From: a plasmid
Reading direction: 5' to 3' (one strand)
Sequence record: NZ_CP079207.1
DNA length: 16,663 bases
The notes beneath the pieces are model-generated. The model was not told where the DNA came from. It searched no databases and saw only the letters and a program-made list of their open reading frames with translations. Shown piece by piece: positions 31-16,497 of this stretch; position 1 is the first letter of the stretch; the number at the start of each line of letters is the position of its first letter. The translations under genes and the position numbers were made by a program.

Positions 31-1143
31 ATGACAAAATCAACAAATTTCAATTACTATGAAGCCGATAACGTATATGGAGCCTTATTTTTCCAGTTTC
101 CTAAGGTATTAATGTATGGCGAGCAATATAAACATTTAAGCAGTGATGCTAAATTGGCTTATATGGTACTGAAAGACCGGCTCGAGTATTCTTTACGCAA
201 CAACTGGGTTGATGAGCAAGGGCACGTCTACTTTATTTTTACCGTTAAAGAATTACAAGATTTATTTAACTGCGCTACTGAAAAAGCCGTTAAAATCAAA
301 AAAGAATTGCAAACAGCCAATCTATTAAAACAAATTCAAATGGGATTTAATCCTAAAACTAAAAAGAATGAACCAAATCGTCTATACCTTTCTAAACTCG
401 ATGTGAAAGCTACTGATGTCTATTTAAGGGGCGAATATGGGCAAAAAAAGCCGGAATCCCTTACTACGAGCGGAATTTCGAAAATCGAAAGTCCGCATGA
501 CTTCGTTGAATCCCTTGCTACGAGCGGAATTTCGAAAATCGAAAGTCCGCATGACTTCGTTGACGACAACCCTCAAACCCTTGCTACGAGCGGAATTTCG
601 AAAATCGAAAGCAATCTATATAAAGACTATAAAAATAATATAGATACTAATAGATACGATATAGATACTCAAAAGTTGGACTTTTCCACAACTAATTTTT
701 CACCAGCTGAAATTGAAGCCCAAAATCGAGATCTAGTAAAACATGCTGATGAGTTCTTAACTGACGAAGATAATGGGTTGCCGGTCTTCTTAGAACCAGA
801 AGCAGTTCAACTACTTAGCTTTTGGTGCCGTACCCCACAACAAATGCGGCGCTTTATTGGCATTATCTTAAACGCCAAATATGCTGTTGAAAAAGAGCAT
901 AAGGATTTAGGCGTATGGATTCTATTAGACGATCCTGATTTAAAAAAAATGATGACCAAAACATTAAGACGCTATTTTAATGCTCTAAGAAGCGACGAGA
1001 AGCATATCAAGAATGTTGAGAACTACCTGTACGGCACCATGCAAAACCTATTTGGTGTTTGGTGGAACCGACAAGCAGCTAGAGAATATGCGGCCAAACA
1101 CCCCGAAGAACAGAATCTTGATGGCGAGCGCGCTTGGGACTAA
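31..1143 (+). CDS. repA: RepA_N-family plasmid replication initiator (theta type). Start chosen at ATG 31, preceded by AAGGGAG.
   Basis: The N-terminal region (FPKVLMYGEQYKHLSSDAKLAYMVLKDRLEYSLRNNWVDEQGHVYF) matches the RepA_N N-terminal domain pattern of Firmicutes plasmids. The central region holds tandem peptide repeats (SLTTSGISKIESPHDFV x3) encoded by DNA iterons. The C-terminal half is variable. Confidence 0.75.
   Translation: MTKSTNFNYYEADNVYGALFFQFPKVLMYGEQYKHLSSDAKLAYMVLKDRLEYSLRNNWVDEQGHVYFIFTVKELQDLFNCATEKAVKIKKELQTANLLKQIQMGFNPKTKKNEPNRLYLSKLDVKATDVYLRGEYGQKKPESLTTSGISKIESPHDFVESLATSGISKIESPHDFVDDNPQTLATSGISKIESNLYKDYKNNIDTNRYDIDTQKLDFSTTNFSPAEIEAQNRDLVKHADEFLTDEDNGLPVFLEPEAVQLLSFWCRTPQQMRRFIGIILNAKYAVEKEHKDLGVWILLDDPDLKKMMTKTLRRYFNALRSDEKHIKNVENYLYGTMQNLFGVWWNRQAAREYAAKHPEEQNLDGERAWD
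458..613. repeat. Three tandem direct repeats (units starting near 458, 512 and 578; 54-bp period, with 12 extra bp before the third copy) inside repA. Each unit carries an internal TTCGAAAATCGAAAG sub-repeat. Candidate iterons of an intragenic oriV.
   Basis: The repeat CCCTTGCTACGAGCGGAATTTCGAAAATCGAAAGTCCGCATGACTTCGTTGA occurs 2.5-3 times, read directly from the sequence. RepA_N plasmids place their origin inside the rep coding region. Confidence 0.7.
614..700. repeat. AT-rich tract with short ATAGATAC direct repeats, immediately 3' of the iterons. Candidate DNA-unwinding element of the origin.
   Basis: AATCTATATAAAGACTATAAAAATAATATAGATACTAATAGATACGATATAGATACTC seen in sequence. It still lies within the repA reading frame. 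Confidence 0.4.
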
Positions 1144-2333: not shown

Positions 2334-2999
2334 ATGTCAAGAATTTATAAAGTTGGCGAAGCTGCTAAGCTTCTCGGTGTATCTCGCTCTACCATGCAAA
2401 GATGGGATCGAGAAAAAAGACTAGTTGCTCAGCGCAATGTTGCCAATCGCAGATACTATACGCAAGAGCGGCTGGATGCTTTTAGGGGCATTAAGCCTCA
2501 CCGCAAGACAGTTGCTTATGCCCGTGTTTCTTCTGTAGGTCAGAAAGAAAATCTTAGGCATCAGATGGCTTTCATCATTGAATATGCCAATGCTAGAGGC
2601 ATCATTATTGATGAACATGTAGAAGATATTGGATCAGGGCTTAATTATAACCGCAAAAAATGGAATAAATTATTGGATGAAGTAGAAGCAGGAAAAATAG
2701 AACGAATCTTTGTTACCTATAAAGATCGTTTTGCCCGCTTTGGCTTTGATTGGTTTGAACATTTTTGTGCTAAGCACGATACTAAAATTATTGTTTTAAA
2801 CAACCCTGAAACCTCTCCAGATGAGGAAATGGTTGAAGACTTAATTTCAGTAATTCATGTGTTTTCATGTCGGCTTTATGGGTTGAGACGGTACGGCAGG
2901 AAGATTAGGCGGGATTTAAAGAAGGAAGGTGAAAAGAGTGATCATCAAAACCAGAACATATCGATTAAAACCCAATCAAAGGATGAAGAAGGTTCTTGA
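2334..2999 (+). CDS. tnpA: IS607-family TnpA: a serine recombinase with an N-terminal MerR-like HTH.
   Basis: HTH YKVGEAAKLLGVSRSTMQRWDREKRL. Catalytic-Ser motif AYARVSSVGQ. About 220 aa from ATG 2334. Overlaps the start of tnpB. Confidence 0.8.
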   Translation: MSRIYKVGEAAKLLGVSRSTMQRWDREKRLVAQRNVANRRYYTQERLDAFRGIKPHRKTVAYARVSSVGQKENLRHQMAFIIEYANARGIIIDEHVEDIGSGLNYNRKKWNKLLDEVEAGKIERIFVTYKDRFARFGFDWFEHFCAKHDTKIIVLNNPETSPDEEMVEDLISVIHVFSCRLYGLRRYGRKIRRDLKKEGEKSDHQNQNISIKTQSKDEEGS

Positions 3000-4215
3000 T
3001 TCGCTTTGTGATTACAGACGCTTCAGCTGGAATCTCGGTTTAGAAACCTGGCAAAATATGCATGAAGCCAGACAATTGGCTTTAACCCAGCATCTTAAAG
3101 CAGAACTTAAAAAGCCTAGAAAAAAACAAAAGCTTACAAACGCTGAAAGAGAAATTCTCGCAAACAATCCTGTCCCTTCCTGGCGCAGAATTCGTGATGA
3201 GCTGACTGAAAACAAGCAATACTGGCAGACAAAGCTTCCAGCTCATGTCTTTAATTTGGCGATCCAAGACTTAGGCAATGCTTGGCAGAATTTTTTTGAT
3301 AAAGCGCAGCCAGGCTGGGGAAAGCCAAAATTCAAGTCTAAAAAAGCACCTAGGCAGGGATTTAAAATGGATCAGGCCAAAATTAAGGATGGCTGCTTAT
3401 TTTTAGAAAAGCCTAGGGCTGTCAAAGAAACATGGAACGGCTTTAAATTAAGCTCTGCTCCATTGTCGGATGATTTCGGAACAATCAGCTTTTACAAAGA
3501 AAAAAACAGATACTATGCATCCATTCCTTTTAAAATATCTGATCCAGAAGACAAGCCTAAGACAGGCAGATATACAGGCGTGGATATCAATGTTGGACAT
3601 TTCAATTACAGAGACGGTCAATGCATAGTAATGCCCAAATCGTTAGCAGCAGTCTATTGCAAAATCAAGCATTATCAAAGACAGCTGTCTAAAAAGCGTG
3701 TCGTCAATGGTAAAATCAAAGGAATGCAAAGCAAGCGCTACATGAAAGCGAGAAACAAGCTTCAAGCAGCTTACGCTCGTGCTAAAAATATTCAAAATGA
3801 TTTGATGCAGAAATTTACCACAAAGCTGGTTAGCGAATATGATTCTATTGTGATTGAAGACCTAAGCGTTAAAGGAATGCTTATGAGTCATGTTGCCTCC
3901 AAAGGAATGCACAGGTCAATGTTTGGCAGATTTAGACAGATATTGACTTATAAATGCGAATGGTATGGCAAGAAATTGATCGTAGCCAATAAACTGTACC
4001 CTTCAACTCAAAGGTGCGCAGCCTGCGGATTAGTGAAAAAAGGCGATGAAAAAATCACTTTAAGAGGCAATAAGAAGCATGGCACCAAGCATAATGAATT
4101 TGTTTGTTATAATCCGAACTGCCGTAACTATAATAAAAAAGTTGACCGTGACGAAAACGCCATGCTCAACTTAATAATTCTGGTAAAACATCCAGAATTA
4201 AATAAAGCCTTATAA
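2929..4215 (+). CDS. tnpB: TnpB (OrfB, IS605/IS607 accessory protein; RuvC-like RNA-guided nuclease family).
   Basis: N-terminal IKTRTYRLKPNQ. RuvC-I GVDINVGHFN, RuvC-II IVIEDLSVKGM, and RuvC-III DRDENAMLN. Zn finger CAACG...CYNPNC. The start is GTG 2929 or 2938, with GGAAGGTG as RBS. Confidence 0.85.
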   Translation: MKRVIIKTRTYRLKPNQRMKKVLDSLCDYRRFSWNLGLETWQNMHEARQLALTQHLKAELKKPRKKQKLTNAEREILANNPVPSWRRIRDELTENKQYWQTKLPAHVFNLAIQDLGNAWQNFFDKAQPGWGKPKFKSKKAPRQGFKMDQAKIKDGCLFLEKPRAVKETWNGFKLSSAPLSDDFGTISFYKEKNRYYASIPFKISDPEDKPKTGRYTGVDINVGHFNYRDGQCIVMPKSLAAVYCKIKHYQRQLSKKRVVNGKIKGMQSKRYMKARNKLQAAYARAKNIQNDLMQKFTTKLVSEYDSIVIEDLSVKGMLMSHVASKGMHRSMFGRFRQILTYKCEWYGKKLIVANKLYPSTQRCAACGLVKKGDEKITLRGNKKHGTKHNEFVCYNPNCRNYNKKVDRDENAMLNLIILVKHPELNKAL

Positions 4216-4459
4216 AAAGAATGCGGGCGAAGCTACGTCCGAAAAAGAAGTCAAAAGAGTCGGTCAATGCGATTACTCCCAAGTTGGAATATCGGAAAAC
4301 TGATGAAGACGTTGATAAGAAAAGCATAGGCATGTTAAGCCATAATGACTACAAATAAATACAATGTAGTTGTTTGCATATGTTTTTCATAGCTGCTAAT
4401 GAATTGAACCAGATGTACAAGCAACTAAAAAAACGGATAAATTAGAACTTAAATTAGTT

Positions 4460-5622
4460 CCTGAATTGTCAATTTAAGTGCAACAGTTAGGTTATGAAGA
4501 GATATATTGCTTGAAGAGTTCTTCTGCTGTGTGATATTGGAGGATTCGGCGATGTTTGTGGTTAATGGCATTAGTTGCCTGTTGAACATATGCAGCTGTC
4601 TTATCGTTCATGCTTTTGCCTTTAGGGAAGAATTGACGCAGAAGACCGTTGCAGTTTTCATTTGTGCCTCTTTCCCAAGGTGAATATGGATGAGCGAAGT
4701 AGATCTGACAGTTTTTAATTTTAGTCATATCTGCAAACTCAGAACCATTATCAAAAGTAATAGTCTTGAACCAATCTGGATGCTGGTCTATTTCTTTTTG
4801 AAGCAGTCTTTGACAAGTACTTGCTCGATAATCTGGTATTTTGATGACAATTTCAAAACGAGTAGTTCTTTCTGTCAGAGTCATCAAAGCAGGCTGATTT
4901 TTACGTCTAACGCCTTTAACCCAATCTCCTTCCCAGTGAAGAGGAGTTGCTCTGTCTTCAACTTCTTTAGGACGCTGCTCAATTGAATTGCCAAGATTCT
5001 TTTTATGCAAAGCATGCCCACCATGACTATGATGCCGTTTGTTTCTGCGTCTTTTAAGCTTCATTGGCAGATCAATATTGCTTATATCTAGCAAACCGCG
5101 ATCAATATAGCGATAAACGGTAGGCGTGCTGGGGCAAGGATAGCCTGGCATCGTCTGCTTGAACTCACCCACAAACTCATCAATGCTGGTAGCATCAAAT
5201 TTAGTTTTAAACCGCTTAGACAGCATTTTCAGAAAAACAGCATAATGCTTTAACTGATCACGCTTATAGCAGTTCTTGCGTCGCTTATCATGATAGATCT
5301 GCGCAGTATCGGCATAGTAATGCTCATAGAGCAGATAGTTATGATCTCTTTGCAGGACGCTGCCACGTCTGATTTCACGGCTAATTGTCGATTTGTGACA
5401 GCCAACTTCTCGAGCAATAGCGGAACAGGAGGTTATGCCTAAATCAAGCAGAGCTTGTATTTGTCCTCGTTGTACACTATTTAATTGATGATAATGTCTA
5501 GAGATGCTAGAATTTGAATTGGTCATGAAGATTCACCTTCCTTGATTTTTCGTCACTTCAAGTTTAGGTCTTCATGGCCTTTTTGTTTAACACTTAGCGT
5601 TGCACTTCAATTTTAAATCCGG
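4460..5622 (-). mobile_element. IS30-family insertion sequence, about 1.16 kb, with imperfect 26-bp terminal IRs.
   Basis: The left end ATTGTCAATTTAAGTGCAACAGTTAG aligns with the reverse complement of the right end ATTTAAAATTGAAGTGCAACGCTAAG. A 1035-bp transposase gene lies between them. The left boundary is confirmed by the independent copy at 11683. Confidence 0.75.
4492..5526 (-). CDS. IS30-family DDE transposase.
   Basis: 344 aa with an N-terminal HTH (VQRGQIQALLDLGITSCSAIAREVGCHKSTISREIRRG). DDE region with HWEGDWV, FDNGSEF and ERGTNEN motifs typical of IS30. Confidence 0.9.
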   Translation of the reverse strand: MTNSNSSISRHYHQLNSVQRGQIQALLDLGITSCSAIAREVGCHKSTISREIRRGSVLQRDHNYLLYEHYYADTAQIYHDKRRKNCYKRDQLKHYAVFLKMLSKRFKTKFDATSIDEFVGEFKQTMPGYPCPSTPTVYRYIDRGLLDISNIDLPMKLKRRRNKRHHSHGGHALHKKNLGNSIEQRPKEVEDRATPLHWEGDWVKGVRRKNQPALMTLTERTTRFEIVIKIPDYRASTCQRLLQKEIDQHPDWFKTITFDNGSEFADMTKIKNCQIYFAHPYSPWERGTNENCNGLLRQFFPKGKSMNDKTAAYVQQATNAINHKHRRILQYHTAEELFKQYISS

Positions 5623-5851
5623 GACTTACCATTTCTGTTAGAATTGCAACTTGTTCTTTGGTAAATCGCTGTTGTTTTCTAATATCACTTAAATCTTTTG
5701 TCCACTTAGAATTTTTTTCATTTTCTTCTGCTAACTTCATAAGATGATGAATTACTTCAGCATTATTTTTTAAATCGTGTTCCTCTTTATAATCTTGAAT
5801 CCAATCTAAATCTGTATCAGAAATTGTCGCTCTAAAAGTTGTCTTAATCAT
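5594..5851 (-). CDS. Small RHH-like protein (paralog C). Its last 11 codons are encoded by the IS30 right end, so the native C-terminus is lost.
   Basis: RBS AAGAGGA. Beta-strand/helix pattern TTFRATISDTDLDWIQDYKEEHDLKNNAEVIHHL, paralogous to 5866-6093. The tail VSPGFKIEVQR-stop derives from the IS30 IR. Confidence 0.5.
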   Translation of the reverse strand: MIKTTFRATISDTDLDWIQDYKEEHDLKNNAEVIHHLMKLAEENEKNSKWTKDLSDIRKQQRFTKEQVAILTEMVSPGFKIEVQR

Positions 5852-5865
5852 TTTTTCTGGTCCTC

Positions 5866-6093
5866 TTAATCAGCGTAAGTTTCTTGTCTTTTTTTCAAAG
5901 CATTATCAATCTTTTGATTAATTTTTTGTAACTCTTCCAGTTCTTTTTCTTTTTGAACACCTAACATGGCATTGAAGAATAAGAACTTATAAAGTTGACC
6001 ATTATTATCAAAGCAATGTTCTTTTCTAATCTGCCTAATTTCTTCCCATTGCTTATCGTTGAGTCGAAATTGCAAAAAGTGCTGTCGTCCCAT
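5866..6093 (-). CDS. Small RHH-like DNA-binding protein (paralog B).
   Basis: RBS AAGAGGG. HFLQFRLNDKQWEEIRQIRKEHCFDNNGQLYKFL aligns with paralog C (F.R.-.[NS]D...[WL]..I....[KE]EH...NN..[LV]...L). Confidence 0.5.
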   Translation of the reverse strand: MGRQHFLQFRLNDKQWEEIRQIRKEHCFDNNGQLYKFLFFNAMLGVQKEKELEELQKINQKIDNALKKRQETYAD

Positions 6094-6113
6094 TTCTTGC
6101 CCTCTTTCTAAAT

Positions 6114-6446
6114 TTAATCATCTTCTTTTGCCGTGTCTTCTGACAAACTATCTAACAAATTTAATGCTCGTTCGGTGTCATTAACATCTCCACTAATGAA
6201 ATACTTTGCAAGAACATTCAGCCCTAATAAATTTTCCTGCAGAAGTTTATTCTGCTTCTGAATCAATAAACTAGTTTGCGAATCTTCATTTTGATTTTGA
6301 AAATTAATTGGAATTTGTTCAATTTGTTCTCTCAAAAATTGATTTCTGGAAATTTTCTTACTTGAATTTTGATTTAATTGATTAACAATCCGATCAATTC
6401 TAGCCAAGTTTTGTTCGCTGATTCCACGGATTAAAACTTTTACCAT
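6114..6446 (-). CDS. Small RHH-like protein (paralog A, more divergent, with a Q/N-rich middle).
   Basis: RBS AGAGGAAAG. N-terminal KVLIRGISEQNLARIDRIVNQL has a beta-strand plus helix pattern. First gene of a three-gene minus-strand operon. Confidence 0.4.
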   Translation of the reverse strand: MVKVLIRGISEQNLARIDRIVNQLNQNSSKKISRNQFLREQIEQIPINFQNQNEDSQTSLLIQKQNKLLQENLLGLNVLAKYFISGDVNDTERALNLLDSLSEDTAKEDD

Positions 6447-6459
6447 AATTTTTCTTTCC

Positions 6460-6500
6460 TCTGATTTCTAGTTTCTAGTTTTCCTTCTAGTTTCTACTCT
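6460..6500. promoter_or_regulatory. Three to four direct repeats of TCTAGTT(T) in the leader/promoter of the RHH operon. Candidate operator.
   Basis: GATTTCTAGTTTCTAGTTTTCCTTCTAGTTTCTAC lies immediately upstream (on the minus strand) of the RBS of 6114-6446. Confidence 0.35.
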
Positions 6501-6621
6501 GAAATTTGACTAAAATCTGCTTCTTTTAGTTATCTCTAGTAAAGAGCATAAGGGAAATCTGACCCCACGCCTTTTATCAAGGTGTGCTGGGCTTGGTTGT
6601 ACCAAGCGATTTCGCATTTTT

Positions 6622-6770
6622 AGAAGTGATATCACTTCTGATTAATTTGACGTCTATATACTTCTAAATTGTTCGTCTTTTACCTGACATTACGTCTTGA
6701 TACGTAATGTTTTTTTGTAATATCCGAACAGGACGTATTCTTACGTAGCTCATTACGTCCAAGACGTAAC
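6622..6770. promoter_or_regulatory. Cluster of palindromes and ACGT-core half-sites. Candidate operator, oriT or sso.
   Basis: Perfect 18-bp palindrome AGAAGTGATATCACTTCT (6622-6639). GACGTC. Perfect IR CATTACGTcttgatACGTAATG (6688-6709). A second unit CATTACGTCcaagACGTAAC (6752-6770), plus GACGTATTCTTACGTAGC. Confidence 0.35.
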
Positions 6771-6792
6771 ATTTTTTGCTCTATTTTTGAGT

Positions 6793-7662
6793 CTAGTTAT
6801 CAAAATTTCTATTTTTTAACTCTAAAATTTCTTCAACATTTTCAACCAAAATTCCTAAAGTCGACGCAATTTCTCTTGTGCTTTTGCCAATTTCCCGATA
6901 TTTTTTAACTCGAAAAATTAACTCTTGAGAATATTCTACAGGTTCCTTATCACGCTCTATCTCTTTAACTTCAACATTTCTAGCATGATACCTCTGCATC
7001 ATTTTTTGCAAAGTTCCTTCAAGAATATCAAACTGATTTACAAATTCTTTCGCTAAAATTTTAGAAACCCTATTTGACTTTTTAGCTTCATAAATCATTT
7101 TTCTATATCTCTGCTTAGAAGCCCGAGAAGCTTTACTATAGAATTCAGGATTATGAACCAACGCATAAATCATCATTTGCCTATTTAAATTTTCCTCATG
7201 GTCCCAATCTGGCAAATAAAAGTTTTCCAGCATTTCTCTAACTTCCTGAACATAATTTTCAATTTTTGAACCACGCAACTGCATTTCTAATCGCCAAAGT
7301 GAATCAACATTTACAATTCGTCCATGCCTTTGTTCTTGTTCAATTTTTTTATTATACAAACGAATTTGTCTCTCACTTGAACGCGCGCCGAAATATACCG
7401 TTTGCAATTCCCCATTCTTACCATAGAAAAACTTTTTAGTCATTCCCCAGCGCCATACCTGATAATACTGAATCTCAGAATCATTATAAATATCAAAAGC
7501 TACATCACAACGTGAATAATGCTTATTTTGAATTTTTGCAATAATTTCTCTAAGTAGCCATTGACCAGCTGGAGTATTCATCGAATGATTGGGATTAAAG
7601 TCAATTCTAATCTTATCTTTTTGAAACCTAGGAACTTCAAAATATGCAACTTGCCCAGGCGA
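6793..7662 (-). pseudogene. pT181-family (Rep_trans) rolling-circle replication initiator, missing its N-terminus.
   Basis: Block-by-block match to pT181 RepC: RIDFNPN vs [14 protein letters not shown] vs [36 protein letters not shown] vs [39 protein letters not shown] vs LWRVEIELKR. The frame is open upstream only to a TAA at 7663-7665. The first ATG (7581) lies after the RIDFNPN block, so about 100 N-terminal residues are absent. Confidence 0.7.
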
Positions 7663-7667
7663 TTACA

Positions 7668-7725
7668 GACATTACCGGCAGAATTATTCATTTAGACAGC
7701 TGCCAGGCATACCGGCATGACATGC
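7668..7725. other. Candidate double-strand-origin nick hairpin of the RCR replicon. GC-rich imperfect IR ACCGGCAG / CTGCCAGG flanks a loop containing TCTAAAT (minus strand), reminiscent of the pT181 IR-II CTCTAATAG nick loop.
   Basis: GC-rich patch in an AT-rich region, located where pT181-family plasmids carry their origin (within the 5' part of rep). Also a CATTACCGGCA / CATACCGGCA direct repeat. Confidence 0.3.
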
Positions 7726-7810
7726 GGCTGCTGCGTGATTAGCTGATATATTATAATTTTTCCAATTATTGTAAATATCAATTTTATCTTGTTTGGATAA
7801 TTTAGACATA

Positions 7811-7850
7811 AATAAAAACCCCGAAATTCTTGTCCGAATTTCGGGGTTCA
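7811..7850 (-). terminator. Rho-independent terminator of the nrd operon. Stem CCCCGAAATTC / GAATTTCGGGG with the T-run on the minus strand.
   Basis: Perfect 11-bp stem, 6-nt loop. The minus-strand RNA ends in UUUUUAUUU. Lies 40 nt downstream of the nrdE stop. Confidence 0.8.
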
Positions 7851-7887
7851 TATCAATAAACACTTTAGCTGCTTTTCTATTATTAAA

Positions 7888-10056
7888 CTAAATCATACAT
7901 TTCTGGCATTCTGCACCATTTTGAATTAAACATTCGTCTGCAGTCAAGTTCTCACTACCAGCTAAAACTTTTTCTCTTATTCTAACATAATAAATTGAGT
8001 TGCAGCGCTTTTTAAAGGCATAAATATAAGCCTTATTTAAATCTCTTGTTGTTGCATTATCTTCAACAAATAAAGTTAACGAAATTGATTGATCAACATA
8101 CTTTTGTGCAGCAGCTGTAATATCAATAATAGCATTAGGTCCTACTTCATATGCACCCTTTTCGTAATACTCATAATTGTCTTTATTAATCTTATAAGCT
8201 GGTACATAAATTCGACCCAAATCAGCCTCTTTGCGTGTTTCAACAGGAGCTACTACTGGCTGCAAACTTGGTGTACATGAAGATAAATAACTAATTGATC
8301 CAGTAGGTGCAACTGCTAACAAGTTAGCATTAGCTATACCTGTCTTTTTAATTTTAGTAATCAATTCTTCCCAATCTTCTTTAGTTGGAATAACTAATTT
8401 ATATTTAGCTACAATTTCTTTAATCTTGTCTGTTTTCGGTGAGACTTCCTCATCAATAAATTTTTTGAAATAATCACCACTAGCATATGATGAATCTTTG
8501 AATCCTTTAAAAGCACCATACTTTTCAGCTAATTTATTTGATTCTTTAAATGCATGGTATGCAATTGTATAAAAGAAAATTCCTGTAAATTCAACTGCTT
8601 CTGGTGAATCATAATAAATATGATTAGTTGCTAAAAAGCCATGTAAATTCATTGCTCCTAGACCGATTGCTCGATTAGCTTTATTTCCCTTTTCAATTGA
8701 AGGAGCACAATCTAAATCTGAAGACCTGGCAACACGATTAAGCGCTTGAACACTATCAGAAACCAAACCACCTAACTTGTCAGCGCTATTCATTGCTGCT
8801 GCAATATTAAGTGATCCTAAATTACAACAAACATCGTAGCCCGTCTTATTAAAACTTAAGTCTTCATTATAGGTACTTGGCGTATTAACCTGAGCAATTT
8901 CTGAACATAAATTAGACATCACGATCCGCCCCAATTTCTTTTGTGGGTTTCTTCGATTGACAGTATCTTCATACATAATATAGGGATACCCTGATTCAAA
9001 TTGAACTTCAGCAATAGTTTGGAAGAATTTTCTAGCACTGATAAATGTCTTTTTAATACATGGATTATTAAGGAGATTTTGGTATTCTTTAGTAATTGAA
9101 ATATCTGACATTGGTTTACCATATTCACGTTTAATATCATATGGTGAAAACAAAGCCATCTTTTTATTTTCTTTGGCTAGTTCAAAAGTAATATCTGGAA
9201 TCACTACGCCAAGTGATAAAGATTTAATTCTTACCTTTTCGTCAGCGTTTTCTCGTTTAGTATCTAAAAATTGCAGAATCTGGGGATGATGGGCACTTAA
9301 ATAAACTGCACCGGCACCTTGTCTTTGCCCTAATTGATTGGCATAAGAAAATGAATCTTCTAGTAATTTCATTACAGGAATTATCCCACTAGATAAATTC
9401 TTCATTTTTTTAATAGGTGCACCTAATTCACGCAAATTAGTTAAGCATAGAGCAACACCACCACCACGTTTAGATAATTGCAGACTTGTGCTTATTGCTC
9501 GTGAAATTGATTCCATATTGTCTTCAACTCTGAGCAAATAACATGAAACATATTCACCGCGTCTCTTTTTACCTGCATTCAAGAAAGTCGGAGTTGCTGG
9601 CTGGAAACGATTACTAATAATATCTTTAACTAAATTCAAGGCCAGTTCTTCATTGCCATCAGCTAAAAATAAAGCATTCATAACAGCCCGATCTTCAAAA
9701 CGTTCTAAAAATTGTTTATTATCGTTTGTTTTTAAGGCATATGCTTTATAGAATTTAGCTGCACCCATAAAGTTCAAAAAGCTAAAATTTTGCGCATAAG
9801 CTAATTTGAAAATTTCTTTAATAAATTTAGCTGTATATAAATCTAGAACTTTTTTATCATAGTAATTATTATCAACTAAATAAGCTAATTTTTCTTCTAA
9901 AGAAGCAAACTTTTTCATTCTTGGTTCAATATGATTTTCAAGATATTGCTTAGTAGCTTCCTTGTCAGCTTTAAAATTATAATTTCCTTTTTCATCTTTA
10001 AATTTAGCAAGTGCATTTAAAGAAATATATGAATCATTATTAAGATGATCAGTCAT
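7888..10056 (-). CDS. nrdE: Class Ib ribonucleotide reductase alpha subunit NrdE.
   Basis: About 720 aa with the catalytic NLCSEI motif. Start taken at MTDHL (ATG 10056, RBS GGTGAGGA), which overlaps the nrdI stop in ATGACTGA. Confidence 0.9.
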
Positions 10057-10474
10057 TGTCCTCACCTGCATCAGCAATTATTTTATTAACATTATTTACA
10101 TCTTCAGTTGTTCCCAGTAACTCAAATTTATATAGATAAGGAACATGTAATTTCTTAGAAATTACATCCCCTGCCAAGGCAAAAGAATTACCAAAATTGG
10201 TATTTCCACTAGCAATAACACCAATACATTTTTGCCGATTAGCCAATTTGTTCAAAAAGTGGATAACTTGCTCAGGCACAGCACCTGTAGTCCCATGGCC
10301 ACCAGAATAAGTTGGCGTAATTAAAATATATTCTTCAGAAACTGAAATTTCTTTACTGAGTTTAATAGGAATCCTAATAGAATTACAATCTAACTTTTCT
10401 ACAAAGCGTGCTGTATTATTTGAAGTGGAAGAATAATAGACAACTAATGGCTTTTTAGAAATCCCAGTCATCAT
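10049..10474 (-). CDS. nrdI: NrdI flavodoxin-like protein of class Ib RNR.
   Basis: About 140 aa. N-terminal [20 protein letters not shown] has the NrdI signature. Lies between nrdF and nrdE with overlapping stop and start codons. Confidence 0.85.
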
Positions 10475-11462
10475 CTTTAGTCTCCTCTCCTGTTCCCATT
10501 ACATATGAAGAACCATTACCAGAAAAGAAATCATGGTTTTCATCAGCTTGAGCTGATAATTGAGCGAATACTTCTGGGGAAATATAAGTTTCTTCTGCGG
10601 TAAAAGGAGTATCATAGCCTAAATTTTGTAAAAATTTACCTGCATTATACAAACTGAAATGAATTGCATCATCAACCAAATCAAAATCATCATAAAGCTC
10701 GTGCAAATATTTCTTTTCCAAATCAATTAGTTTATCTAAGAAATCAAAAACGAATTTTTTCATTTCTGCTTGTTTAGCTGGAGCTAATTTCTTTACGGCC
10801 AATTGATATTTGTAACCACTATAATAATTGTGAATAACCTTATCTCTTAAGATCAATCTAATAATATCAGCAGTATTAGGCAATTTACCTCTTGCAGCTA
10901 AATAAAATGGTAAATAAAAACCACCATAAAGCAGGAACCCTGGCATAATTGCTGCGGCAACCTTTGATTTAAGCGGATCATTGCCTGTATAATACGGAAT
11001 TACCGCTTTAGCTCTTGCTTGTAAAGCATCATTATTAACTACCCATTCATGCGCTTCTTCAATTTGTTCACTAGTACATAAAGTAGAAAAAATAGTTCCA
11101 TATGATCTTGCATGGACAGCAACCATAAAAGCAAAATTTGCATAGATAGCTTGCTCTATATCAGTTTGTGAATTTTTAATTTGGGCTACATCACCCACAC
11201 TTGATTGAGTTGTATCTAATAAAGTCAATCCAGTGAAAGTGCGAGTTATAAGCTGTTGCCAGTCATCAGATAATTGATTCCAAGAACTTATATCATTCGA
11301 AACTGGGATTTTTTCAGGTAACCAAAAGTTTTGAGTAACTCTGTTCCAAACCTCAAGATCCTTATCATCTTTAATGTCATTCCAGTTAATAGCTCGCATA
11401 TTTTTGCCGTTGTTATTGTAAGCAAATTCAACTGGTGACTGTGAATGATCATAATAACTCAT
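10455..11462 (-). CDS. nrdF: Class Ib ribonucleotide reductase beta subunit NrdF.
   Basis: [42 protein letters not shown] plus the ferritin-like diiron E/H motifs (EEAHEW). Start chosen at the second ATG (11462), preceded by AGGAG. Confidence 0.9.
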
Positions 11463-11542
11463 ATTTGTATTTGCTCCTATCATTATTTATTGTTTTATCT
11501 AATATTTGTGTGAACATAATATAGCATCTTCTGCTCAATAAT

Positions 11543-11586
11543 ACAACATGTGGATTTTTGGCTATTTATAATCAATATATTGTGGC
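11543..11586. promoter_or_regulatory. Two NrdR-box-like palindromes about 30 bp apart, overlapping the predicted nrdF promoter. On the minus strand: -35 TTGTAT, 17-bp spacer, -10 TATATT.
   Basis: TCAATATATTGTGG (11572-11585) matches the NrdR core CwAtATaTwG exactly. ACAACATGTGG (11543-11553) is a weaker second box. Tandem boxes at roughly 31-bp spacing are the usual NrdR arrangement. Confidence 0.45.
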
Positions 11587-11682
11587 TAAGCCGTTTTGAT
11601 AATACAAAATTATTTTCAAATTTATTTTATCTTCCAAAAATAATGTAGGTGTTGTTTTTTGCTTTTTTGACAAAAAAATCTC

Positions 11683-11752
11683 CCTGAATTGTCAAATTAA
11701 GTGCAACAGTTAGGCTATGAAGAGATATACTGCTTGAAGAGTTCTTCTGCTG
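11683..11752. mobile_element. 70-bp solo fragment of the IS30-family element: the left IR plus the last 13 codons of the transposase.
   Basis: Near-identical to 4460-4529 (three mismatches visible). Similarity stops abruptly at 11752. Confidence 0.8.
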
Positions 11753-12224: not shown

Positions 12225-12470
12225 ATTAGTAGACGCGACCAGAGTCATCGGCAGTTGTATAGTCGGTGACTTTTTTATTTTGCATTCTTTAATTCTCTAA
12301 AGCGTCGATAAATTGGTGTTTTGGAGATCCCTAATTTCTTGCTGATTTCAGAATAGCTCCTGTATGCAACCTCCAGGCAAAATCAATTTGTTCTGGAGTG
12401 TACTTTCGAAGCATACCATCATGGAGGTTGGTATTATTAGCTTTCGCTCATGCCTTGTTTTCCCAAGATG
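12225..12470 (-). pseudogene. Decayed 3' remnant of a serine resolvase gene, homologous to 12775-13380, with a frameshift and upstream loss.
   Basis: DNA-level homology to 12790-13010. It translates to ..NLHDGMLRKYTPEQIDFAWRLHTGAILKSARN-stop, where the intact gene reads FHDGMPRKYTSEQIDFAWKLHTQDHMSYSEISRKLG. An in-frame stop lies upstream. Confidence 0.7.
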
Positions 12471-12685: not shown

Positions 12686-12778
12686 ATGTCAGATGTTGTA
12701 ACACTAATCCTAACAATCGCACTTTTGAATGAATTACATTTAGTCCTTCACGAACTAAACCAGCTATTAAAGCACTAG
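12686..12778 (+). CDS. Short hydrophobic peptide P2, 30 aa (MSDVVTLILTIALLNELHLVLHELNQLLKH).
   Basis: RBS GAAAGGAG 7 nt upstream of the ATG. The stop codon TAG overlaps the convergent resolvase stop within CTAG. Paralog of P1. Confidence 0.45.
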   Translation: MSDVVTLILTIALLNELHLVLHELNQLLKH

Positions 12779-13380
12779 TGCAAAAAGTCGTCCTTCGGGG
12801 CGGCTTTTTTGTCTCTTAACTCTCTAAAACGCCGGTAGATAGTTGCTTTTGACATACCTAATTTCCGACTGATTTCAGAATAGCTCATGTGGTCTTGAGT
12901 ATGGAGCTTCCACGCAAAATCAATTTGTTCTGAGGTGTACTTTCGAGGCATACCATCATGGAAGTTAGGATTATTGGCTTTTGCCCATGCCTTGCCTTCC
13001 TGGGTTCGGTTCACGATAAGATCACGTTCAAATTCTGCAAATGCACTGAATACAGTGAAGATTAGACGGCCACTTGGTGAATTATCAATCGTACCAATAT
13101 TTAAGACGCGTAGAATGATTCCCTCAGCATTTAATTGTTTAACAATGTTCAATGCGTCCTGAGTATTACGTGCTAGTCGATCTAATTTGGTGACAATTAG
13201 GGTATCACCACTACCAATTTGAGCCATCAATTTATCGAATTCTGGTCGATTTGCTGTGGTGCCTGTGTATTTATCCTTAAAGATTTTGGTCGCTCCTGCC
13301 TGTTTTAGGTCTTCAACTTGAGTTGCATAGTCCTGCTGAGTAGTTGAAACACGAGCATAGCCATAAATGGTATTTGTCAT
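12775..13380 (-). CDS. Serine recombinase of the resolvase/invertase family.
   Basis: YGYARVSTTQQD catalytic-Ser motif. About 200 aa. C-terminal HTH (SYSEISRKLGMSKATIYRRF). Confidence 0.9.
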   Translation of the reverse strand: MTNTIYGYARVSTTQQDYATQVEDLKQAGATKIFKDKYTGTTANRPEFDKLMAQIGSGDTLIVTKLDRLARNTQDALNIVKQLNAEGIILRVLNIGTIDNSPSGRLIFTVFSAFAEFERDLIVNRTQEGKAWAKANNPNFHDGMPRKYTSEQIDFAWKLHTQDHMSYSEISRKLGMSKATIYRRFRELRDKKAAPKDDFLH

Positions 13381-13486
13381 ATATTTCCTTTCAATTATGA
13401 ATACAAGTTATGAATATGGCTTATGCCCTATCTTAGAAGATTCTACTTTTGTATTCAAGACTTTCAACTTTTGATTACAAAACAAA

Positions 13487-13527
13487 AAGCAGTTTCTAAA
13501 AAGAAACTGCTTAAGTATTATTATTTT
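13487..13527. terminator. Bidirectional rho-independent terminator. Stem AAGCAGTTTCT / AGAAACTGCTT; the T-run is stronger on the minus strand.
   Basis: Perfect 10-11-bp stem with an AAAAA loop. The minus-strand RNA is followed by UUUUUGUUUUG. Confidence 0.65.
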
Positions 13528-13729
13528 CAATAATTACCATTTAATGTTAGAAATAGAAGATCAAAAGTAGAGAATGAAAATGTAAAAGTAGGAGTAGAGA
13601 ATAAAAATGAGAAAAAAGGGCTGGCTCTTTCTAACAGCCAGTCAGAGTACTCAAATCTGAGACAAAATGTAAAAATTAGCATAGATCGATTAACAATTGT
13701 TGGAGATTTTTCGACAGAGCTTTTTAAAA

Positions 13730-14350
13730 AATTAGTTCGTAAATGGCTGACTTTTTCTTTTATTAGATCTTCGGGAGCTGGTTTTGAGGTATTAGATTAT
13801 TCAAATTGCAGGTTTGATGATTTCGGTAATCCACATGAGGAAATTCCGCCTGGGCTTTTAAAACGTGCTGTTTTTTCTTGCCGGAATAATAAGCTGCTTG
13901 TCTTTTTTTGGGCGTTGAATCTTTACTTCAGTGGCATCGATTAAGACAACATCGTCTGGCTTGATTTCTTGCTTGCCAATGTTAAAGCCATGCTTAGCCA
14001 AAGTCTCTTCGGCCCAGTGGCTTCTTCTGATCAGGTTGCTGTCATGCACACCGTAATCGGCAGCTATTTGTTCATAAGTACGGTATTCCTTGAGGTACTG
14101 CAAAGTAGCCAGAAGCAGGTCTTCAATTGCCAGCTTGAGCTTTCTGCCGCCTCGGGCATGCTTGACTTGATATTCGGCTTTTAATACTTTGACCATTTCG
14201 TCAAAGACAGGCTTGGCAACGCCGATCAGACGCTTGAATCTGGTATTGTTTAAATTTTTAGCTGTTTCGTATTTCATAATTTAAGATTATAGCAGATGTT
14301 TCGCAGTAACTCTATTAACTAAAGAAACAAATAATGAAAGGCATGGTTGG
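13730..14350 (-). mobile_element. 5' fragment of an IS5-family element (IS427-like two-ORF organisation). orfA (13858-14277) is intact. orfB begins via a -1 frame at AAAAAAC and then stops after about 30 codons, so the DDE domain is missing.
   Basis: The orfA N-terminal HTH region ends at the first DDE aspartate (LIDATE). The -1 frame continues KKKQHVLKAQ, resembling the IS5-family YSGKKKRHTLK block. No further transposase sequence follows. Confidence 0.55.
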
Positions 14351-16454: not shown

Positions 16455-16497
16455 ATGGACTAAGTAGCTTCTAATAACTACTTAGTCCATTTTTAGT
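16455..16497 (+). terminator. Plus-strand rho-independent terminator. Stem ATGGACTAAGTAG / CTACTTAGTCCAT followed by TTTT.
   Basis: Perfect 13-bp stem, 10-nt loop, then TTTTAGTTCTT. There is no T-run for the minus strand. Confidence 0.7.

Follow-up and report, generated by a model that had tools for sequence, protein, structure and literature searches.

The stretch of DNA analysed here (the window; 16,663 nucleotides) is the whole of the circular plasmid NZ_CP079207.1, and its two ends are contiguous in the closest public relative of this 16.7-kb plasmid, the Lactobacillus crispatus plasmid NZ_CP046312.1 (FDAARGOS_743 unnamed1, 13,473 bp). A Pfam match confirmed that the host plasmid is a RepA_N replicon, as had been proposed in an earlier reading of the sequence alone (the original prediction), and this replicon is the carrier of the remnant of a second, pT181-family rep gene. 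A complete, expressible copy of that gene is absent from the window; it lies there in two pieces, on opposite strands and 6 kb apart (Table 1). The plasmid as a whole is a mosaic of IS30, IS607, ISL3, IS3, and IS5 pieces, and many variants of it occur.

The larger piece of rep is a minus-strand frame that opens after a TAA (7665 to 7663) and has its first ATG at 7581, past the RIDFNPN block. This ORF matches the Pfam family Rep_trans (PF02486) with an E value of 2e-8, which is above the gathering score, and it matches the sequence of the RepD/E structure 4CWC with an E value of 1.9e-28, with the YFG and IRLYNKK blocks aligned to the staphylococcal motifs. Both the family assignment and the opening of the frame agree with what had been predicted. 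The tyrosine of IRLYNKK (codon 7354 to 7356) corresponds in the alignment to Tyr191 in the translation of pT181 repC (IRIYNKK), which, following the literature, we take to be the catalytic residue of RepC.

The closest complete relatives in a collection of 5.8 billion proteins were two Reps of 391 amino acids (P0002 and P0003; 84% identity at 100% query cover), encoded on plasmid contigs of ∼1.9 kb from Logan assemblies (L007/L008 and L009). The ends of L007 overlap by 30 bp, as do those of L008, so that both are circles of 1,883 bp. Homology to P0002, P0003, and the Reps of pBNS11-2kb and pFD3.1 starts at QVAY (residue 106 of these proteins; window position 7653), so that the ORF lacks the first 105 codons of intact Reps and the predicted 5' truncation is borne out. 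At the DNA level, a sensitive blastn search of the small-plasmid contigs against the whole window gave two matches for each contig and aligned L007 489 to 1660 with 7659 to 6488 on the minus strand (85.4% identity). The window Rep has an extra HTH-like C-terminal tail of ∼55 amino acids, and a divergent C-terminal stretch of the protein (REMLENFYLPDWDHEENLNRQMMIYALVHNPEFYSKASRASKQRYRKMI) is identical in P0003.

Table 1. Features of the rep remnant and its surroundings in the window
Feature	Position	Strand	Description
Captured-plasmid non-coding DNA, 3' of rep	6488-6792	−	TTACGTC..GACGTAA palindromes; candidate single-strand origin
pT181-family rep, 3' part	6793-7659	−	286 codons, residues 106-391 of intact Reps; stop 6793-6795
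9-bp core, first copy	7653-7661	−	CGCCTGGGC in minus-strand reading; IS5-A/rep-3' junction; rep and IS5 matches overlap (L007 489-495, L001 4078-4086)
IS5-family transposase gene, internal fragment (IS5-A)	7653-7738	+ (sense)	86 bp; reads AQAITDITGRIIHLDSCQAYRHDMRLLRD; 98.8% identical to L001 4001-4086
IS3-family element, left end	7730-7856	−	terminal repeat begins TGAACCCCG; hairpin 7816-7849; transposase ATG 7812
Putative inverted segment	7662-13846		∼6.2 kb; IS5-A, IS3 end, nrdE-nrdI-nrdF, recombinase remnants, resolvase gene, rep 5' part
Resolvase gene (serine recombinase)	12775-13380		170 bp from rep 5' part
rep, 5' part	13548-13855	+	codons ∼4-105; open frame RNRRSKVENENVKVGVENKNEKKGLALSNSQSEYS...HEEIPPG; lacks start codon, RBS, and promoter
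Candidate IR-II-type double-strand origin hairpin	13621-13641	+	CTGGCT-CTTTCTAAC-AGCCAG
9-bp core, second copy	13847-13855		CGCCTGGGC; rep-5'/IS5-B junction
IS5 element, 5' part (IS5-B)	13847-14314	−	reaches terminal inverted repeat GAGTTACTGCGAAAC

IS5 and IS3 pieces next to the truncated frame

In a megablast search against PLSDB, the DNA from 7653 to 7900 broke into unrelated pieces. The piece that adjoins rep, IS5-A, is an open transposase frame on the plus strand that occurs as a single copy in the window, and its counterpart in L001 sits within a complete IS5-family element of ∼860 bp with HTH_Tnp_4, DDE_Tnp_4, and terminal repeats (GAGTT(C/A)CTGCGAAAC). Pfam searches with the IS5 ORFs returned HTH_Tnp_4 and DDE_Tnp_4/DDE_Tnp_1. 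The rest of this element that is left in the window lies far away, in IS5-B: positions 13847 to 14318 are 98.9% identical to L001 4078 to 4549, and a 139-amino-acid ORF there (13858 to 14277) contains HTH_Tnp_4. Identity to adjacent parts of the L001 element places both pieces in the IS5 family; the copy in the window is split, and its 3' ∼313 bp are absent.

The second piece upstream of rep is a remnant of 127 bp, with about the first 27 codons of a transposase, that shares 97.6% identity with the beginning of a complete IS3 element in L. helveticus plasmid pFAM8105 (L002 3001 to 3127), whose transposase (464 amino acids; HTH_28, HTH_21, and rve) establishes the IS3-family membership. The remnant breaks off at 7730 to 7738, with TCA(C)GCAGC at the seam to the IS5 fragment, and the same nrdE-IS3 junction is carried by L. 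gasseri plasmids (99.4% identity). Judged by these identities, 7653 to 7856 is IS5 and IS3 debris and neither rep nor origin DNA.

The rep 5' part, its hairpin, and the downstream palindromes

Of the codons missing from the truncated ORF, those from ∼4 to 105 were found in the piece at 13548 to 13855. In the same blastn search against the whole window, this piece aligned with L009 680 to 987 (86.4% identity), and 13555 to 13855 aligned on the plus strand with L007 195 to 495 (83.4% identity). Its left edge (13547/13548) falls about 8 nt past the start codon of L009, and the piece contains no in-frame ATG, GTG, or TTG. It was also found in an independent assembly (L020), and PLSDB contained no close relative of it. 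The counterpart of L007 1661 to 1883 plus 1 to 194 (∼410 bp) is missing from the window; this is the control region with promoter, leader, and start codon, and the upstream countertranscript/attenuation control of pT181-type replicons is accordingly absent from the window. Rfam detected no plasmid countertranscript or single-strand origin (sso) family in the window. Approximately 78% of the small plasmid has been kept, comprising rep from codon ∼4 to the stop and ∼300 bp of downstream DNA. The original prediction had suggested checking for a deletion relative to intact homologues; the 5' control region has been lost, but codons 4 to 105 would have been moved by an inversion and not deleted (see below). 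The edges of the captured plasmid, at 13547/13548 and ∼6488, lie away from the nick site and away from IS ends.

Origins of the pT181 family sit within rep (PMC5703833). Codons 23 to 32 of repC (KTGYSNSRLD) contain the IR-II hairpin, AACCGGCTA-CTCTAA-TAGCCGGTT, in the sequence record of pT181. All of the relatives inspected have a hairpin at the homologous "SNS" codons; the core of its loop is always TCTAACAG, and the arms of its stem are complementary but vary from plasmid to plasmid. Nine plasmids (pT181, pRS2, pFD3.1, pBNS11, pSC262, pL11, L007, L009, and the window) have the loop TCTAA(C/T)AG without exception and show covarying stems. The stems were tallied sequence by sequence, as differences in loop length place them in two alignment registers: the 5' and 3' arms are GCCGGCT and AGCCGGC in pFD3.1, TTTTGCTGTC and GACAGCAAAA in pBNS11, AGCCGGC and GCCGGCT in pRS2, ACCGCC and GGCGGT in pSC262, GCCGCC and GGCGGT in pL11, GACTGGCT and AGCCAGTC in L007, and CTGGCT and AGCCAG in both L009 and the window.

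The hairpin in the rep 5' part occupies the homologous "LSNSQ" codons (about codons 27 to 35), and its stem and loop are identical to those of L009; its 3' flank is likewise of the L009 type and not of the L007 type, with ∼94% identity over 13590 to 13700. TCTAAYAG occurs three times in the window versus 1.2 times expected, and about four hairpins with a TCTAA loop arise by chance per shuffled window, so that the motif alone is not diagnostic. On homology and position together, the feature at 13621 to 13641, with its TCTAA(T/C)AG loop in the 5' part of rep, is likely the origin-type hairpin of the family, and the pT181 site CTCT/AATAG, taken as a guide by homology, would put the nick between 13632 and 13633. 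The synonymous divergence dS is lower in the 5' third of rep (0.41 to 0.49 versus 0.68 to 1.17), which fits a cis-acting site overlapping the codons.

The match to L007 runs without a break from rep into the DNA downstream of it (6488 to 6792), the outer boundary of which lies near 6488 to 6490. As single-stranded DNA, this region folds with −45 kcal/mol and a z score of −6.3 (−7.6 on the other strand), and none of 100 shuffled sequences folded as well. Its palindromes and this fold suggest that it might be the single-strand origin of the captured plasmid.

Junctions between rep and IS5 and the origin of the split

The two rep pieces are bounded by the same 9-bp core, CGCCTGGGC, and so are the two pieces of IS5: the element mapped in two complementary parts (L001 4001 to 4086 to window 7738 to 7653 and L001 4078 to 4549 to window 13847 to 14318), whose 9-bp overlap is this sequence. 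An alignment of the four arms was exact, with rep-5'/core/IS5-right at 13847 to 13855 and IS5-left/core/rep-3' at 7661 to 7653. IS5 reads ..TGTAAT-CGCCTGGGC-TTTTAAAAC.. across the core, and the ancestral rep would have read ..GAAATTC-CGCCTGGGC-AAGTTGCAT.. at this place. The junctions are reciprocal, with nothing lost or duplicated beyond the common 9 bp, and the rejoined rep halves are in frame over 388 open codons (PPGQVAY at the seam versus PPEQVAY in relatives). The rep genes of the related plasmid contigs read CCACCTGAGC at the core, with CCTGAGC and not CCTGGGC; the ancestral cores may therefore have contained a mismatch and shared 7 to 9 bp.

Both junctions recur elsewhere. The IS5-A/rep-3' junction is present in NZ_CP046312.1 (L006), in L011, and in a metagenome contig (L019), and the rep-5'/IS5-B junction is present in the independent assembly L020. 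The backbone of NZ_CP046312.1 is 99.9 to 100% identical to that of the window, including the order rep-3'/IS5-A/IS3/nrdE. Unlike the window, this plasmid lacks 13470 to 14316, a segment with the rep 5' part, the hairpin, and the IS5 5' part that has since been lost from it, and it also lacks 3353 to 5685 (part of TnpB plus IS30).

Since the reciprocal hybrid junctions lie on opposite strands, a single inversion is the simplest history, and we consider it highly probable that a rolling-circle plasmid was captured and that rep and IS5 were then both split by one inversion of ∼6.2 kb at the 9-bp core. In the order of events that we infer, a pT181-family plasmid akin to L007 to L009, coding for a 391-amino-acid Rep with an HTH tail, would have joined the RepA_N theta plasmid. 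Later, one reciprocal exchange at CGCCTGGGC would have taken place between rep codons 103 to 105 and the antisense strand of a nearby IS5 transposase gene. With the two cores inversely oriented, the ∼6.2 kb between them, containing nrdEIF, the resolvase gene, and the IS3 stump, would have been flipped, which would have joined the rep 3' part to the 86-bp IS5 stump (at 7653 to 7661) and the rep 5' part to the other part of IS5 (at 13847 to 13855). The exchange was presumably an intramolecular short-homology (illegitimate) recombination; 9 bp is too short for normal RecA recombination. Recombination mediated by Rep was considered and rejected, as ∼220 bp separate the hairpin from the breakpoint downstream of it, and the outer boundaries lie elsewhere too. 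A scan of genome contigs, aimed at the ancestor before inversion and at hosts of plasmids like L007, returned one chance match of 22 bp in a Thermococcus MAG, and a metagenome scan for the ancestor returned only another copy of the inverted arrangement. Since the collections of plasmids, genomes, and metagenomes yielded no ancestor with the un-inverted order, the inversion is deduced solely from the geometry of the junctions.

The original prediction had explained the truncated frame differently, with the Rep N-terminus displaced into a 41-codon ORF (7812 to 7687), as a small deletion or frameshift would do, and the nick site in a GC-rich hairpin at 7668 to 7725, the place thought to correspond to the pT181 origin. 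The patch is indeed GC-rich (48 to 54% versus 36% for the window) and lies directly upstream of the truncated ORF, and its loop holds TCTAAA, with a superficial likeness to CTCTAAT in the loop of pT181. It folds only weakly as single-stranded DNA, however (−8 kcal/mol, z score of −1.2, with 22 of 200 shuffled sequences folding at least as well), and it is a fragment of the IS5 transposase gene that matches the IS5 copies of L. helveticus and L. kefiranofaciens plasmids at 99% identity. Against the displaced N-terminus, the first 24 residues of the 41-codon ORF, beginning MSKLSKQDKIDIYNNWKNYNISAN, are the N-terminus of the IS3 transposase, and the remainder is read-through into antisense IS5, the tail of which (AAACHAGMPGSCLNE) is also read in L001, far from any rep. 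Nor does an alternative start at 7660 to 7830 restore the N-terminus, as homology to intact Reps ends at 7653 and the DNA upstream is IS5 and IS3. The region from 7580 to 7830, for which similarity to known origins had been expected, gave only matches of ≤14 nt in blastn-short comparisons with the origin and 5'-rep regions of pT181, L007, L009, pBNS11, pFD3.1, and pRS2, which we regard as noise, and the patch itself matches no origin. The true hairpin lies on the other strand, at 13621 to 13641, and since it is ∼70 codons upstream of the breakpoint, as expected for the origin of the family, it was never next to the truncated ORF. We give the displaced N-terminus and its nearby nick site next to no credence. 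What holds up of the broader proposal, the capture of a rolling-circle plasmid with its origin retained, is the capture, the broken rep, and the survival of an origin-like hairpin, but not the location of that hairpin.

The same reciprocal junction sequences would also result if the exchange had occurred between molecules, with a crossover between the rep plasmid and an IS5 plasmid giving a cointegrate that was then rearranged further, and a plasmid that is an IS mosaic with many variants (such as L006 without 13470 to 14316 and 3353 to 5685) offers room for such steps. A simple cointegrate, however, would carry the hybrid junctions on the same strand, whereas they are observed on opposite strands; this route needs at least one extra inversion, is less parsimonious than a single event, and appears unlikely to us. 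Still less likely is a remnant that has kept a function, either as a 262-amino-acid truncated Rep made from the ATG at 7581 and acting on 13621 to 13641 or with the inversion as a reversible serine-recombinase switch. Both halves of rep are free of stops and frameshifts with a dN/dS of 0.16, the aligned tyrosine and the C-terminal part are present, and the 262-amino-acid ORF is identical across a cluster of 88 member sequences; for the switch, the resolvase-family gene lies close to the rep 5' part. The low dN/dS was obtained against distant relatives (dS of about 0.6 to 0.7), though, and speaks only for a recent onset of decay. The ATG at 7581 is not preceded by an evident Shine-Dalgarno sequence, and the 130 absent residues include blocks that are conserved among the compared Reps. 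As for a switch, a re-inverted rep would still be without start codon and promoter, all assemblies examined have one orientation only, and the 9-bp core is internal to two coding sequences and showed no features of a recombinase site.

State of the remnant and relation to known plasmids

The captured element is not a working pT181-type replicon; it has kept the initiator domain, the origin hairpin, and possibly the single-strand origin, and the split rep is presumably non-functional. The dN/dS of the rebuilt rep against the L007 and L009 reps (0.156 to 0.157) equals that of the intact pair (L007 versus L009, 0.164), and there are no stops in 388 codons, suggesting that both the capture and the disruption are recent relative to the divergence of the plasmids.

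With pT181 and pC221 of Staphylococcus aureus (RepC/RepD), the window shares the Pfam family, the IR(I/L)YNKK motif, and the origin hairpin at the "SNS" codons in the 5' part of rep with its TCTAA(T/C)AG loop. Protein identity to these Reps is about 35%, and the subgroup to which the window belongs differs from them in a longer N-terminus, a 9-nt loop (CTTTCTAAC versus CTCTAA), and the ∼55-amino-acid HTH-like C-terminal tail; the window, in addition, has rep split and without start codon or control region. Closest in kind to the captured plasmid are L007/L008, L009, and small plasmids of lactic acid bacteria (pBNS11-2kb, pFD3.1, and pRS2). L007 to L009 are 84% identical to the window in protein and ∼85% in DNA over rep, and L007 shares the downstream palindromic region, but in these plasmids rep is undivided and preceded by its control region, whereas the copy in the window is integrated, split, and short of ∼410 bp.

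Theta plasmids commonly contain co-integrated rolling-circle plasmids whose replication regions have been deleted, and in staphylococci small rolling-circle plasmids have been captured by larger theta plasmids and then lost their replication functions (PMC5703833). The event described here is of this known kind, in a Lactobacillus host lineage and with a different route of inactivation. As in the staphylococcal theta plasmid and SCCmec cointegrates, a small rolling-circle plasmid was captured by a larger replicon of the RepA_N type, and its replication functions were then inactivated or deleted. In contrast to the IS257-flanked staphylococcal cointegrates, the captured plasmid is without directly repeated flanking IS copies; its inactivation consisted of the loss of the 5' control region plus the short-homology inversion, as opposed to IS257-mediated adjacent deletion, and the cargo is nrdEIF as opposed to a resistance gene.

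The locus thus records that an nrdEIF plasmid of Lactobacillus captured a plasmid of the pT181 family, which was recently inactivated, and it offers a clean case of a reciprocal inversion for which 9 bp of identity sufficed. It also corrects a reading of the sequence alone that had put the origin into IS debris, where mapping by homology locates both the hairpin and the break in the gene. That the captured cis elements (the hairpin at 13621 to 13641 and the sso-like region at 6488 to 6792) are still usable in trans by a co-resident L009-type Rep is a fairly small chance; if they were, the 16.7-kb theta plasmid would gain a conditional rolling-circle mode and might be transferred by a conjugative element with Rep as a surrogate relaxase. 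The hairpin has been kept unaltered in one variant of the plasmid and is absent from that of FDAARGOS_743; the pair would make a simple natural comparison to show whether a theta plasmid is harmed or helped by an orphan rolling-circle origin.

Rep tails, palindromes and nick-site-like hairpins

The Rep encoded by the captured rolling-circle DNA and those of its two relatives (P0002 and P0003, 391 amino acids each) carry an extra helix-turn-helix (HTH)-like C-terminal tail (..GKSTREIASTLGILVENVEEIL..), which is missing from the Reps of the small lactic-acid-bacteria plasmids pBNS11 and pFD3.1 and from Reps P0004 and P0005. The palindromes that follow the rep stop codon are common to the window and L007, one of the ∼1.9-kb relative contigs, and are not present in another, L009; they could represent an operator for the HTH-like tail or part of the candidate single-strand origin. 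L009 also contains a match to "Bacillus-plasmid RNA" (RF01691), flanked by a NikA-like ORF and rep, and no counterpart of this element was found in the window.

Two nick-site-like hairpins were observed in L021, an intact 1.8-kb plasmid with Rep P0005. The second is kept, with one stem change, at ∼7165-7190 of the Lactobacillus amylovorus contig L013, downstream of a rep remnant, and no counterpart of it follows the rep stop codon in the window or L007. Upstream of the window's RepA_N gene lies a further hairpin, which is perfect, is followed by a T-run, and is probably a terminator; its loop contains a pT181-like TCTAAT, and the hairpin may instead be a transfer-origin-like site.

Features of the window and of related small plasmids (strand in parentheses)
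Feature	Location	Details
Rep tail codons	Window 6796-6960 (−)	Last ∼55 Rep residues
Palindromes	Window 6650-6790 (−)	Right after rep stop; TTACGTC-TTG-GACGTAA and ATTACGT-ATCAA-GACGTAAT
Perfect hairpin	Window 16457-16488 (+)	11-bp stem; GGACTAAGTAG-CTTCTAATAA-CTACTTAGTCC, then T-run
Imperfect tandem repeats in RepA_N gene	Window 455-611	Coding ..TSGISKIESPHDFV..
Segment 1 missing from L006	Window 3353-5685	Part of IS607-type TnpB gene and IS30 copy
Segment 2 missing from L006	Window 13470-14316	rep 5' piece and IS5 5' piece
"Transposase-1 RNA" RF03014	Window 4251-4309 (+)	Rfam, 61 bits
Three small ORFs (110, 75, and 85 aa)	Window 5594-6446 (−)	Adjoin captured plasmid DNA, downstream side
"Bacillus-plasmid RNA" RF01691	L009 367-422	Rfam, 32.6 bits, gathering score barely exceeded
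L021 hairpin 1	L021 ∼500-530	5' coding region, expected place; GGACTGGCT-CTATCTAAC-AGCCAGTC
L021 hairpin 2	L021 ∼1425-1450	Directly 3' of rep stop; AGCGTGC-CTATCTAATA-GCACGCT

A second Rep_trans remnant

The L. amylovorus remnant (L013 6001-7158, protein P0006) is a second, independent remnant of a Rep_trans gene, and its carrier is a Rep_3 theta plasmid. The N-terminal ∼150 residues of P0006 show no relation to Rep. Homology to the intact plasmid L021 begins at L021 position 719, ∼14 to 20 bp upstream of the equivalent of the window breakpoint. Two near-coincident breakpoints (n = 2) in a 1-kb rep gene may be due to chance; alternatively, they could be a sign that the boundary is fragile or favored by selection.

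Mosaic structure of the plasmid

Outside the two segments that it lacks, the Lactobacillus crispatus FDAARGOS_743 plasmid (NZ_CP046312.1; L006) is 99.9 to 100% identical to the window. The RF03014 match lies just 3' of the IS607-type TnpB ORF (2929-4215). The three small ORFs beside the captured DNA were assigned to no Pfam family and are not present in L007 or L009. The resolvase gene has a partial duplicate, ∼500 bp from the intact copy (12289-12463 versus 12816-13000, 78% identity).

The end of the nrd module is bordered by a lone 70-bp sequence resembling an IS30 end (11683-11752), which is 95.7% identical to window positions 4460-4529. The stretch at 7730-11682, comprising nrdF-nrdI-nrdE and the first 127 bp of an IS3 element, shows 99.4% identity to Lactobacillus gasseri pEB01-1 and its relatives, indicating that the nrdF-nrdI-nrdE module is common to different species.
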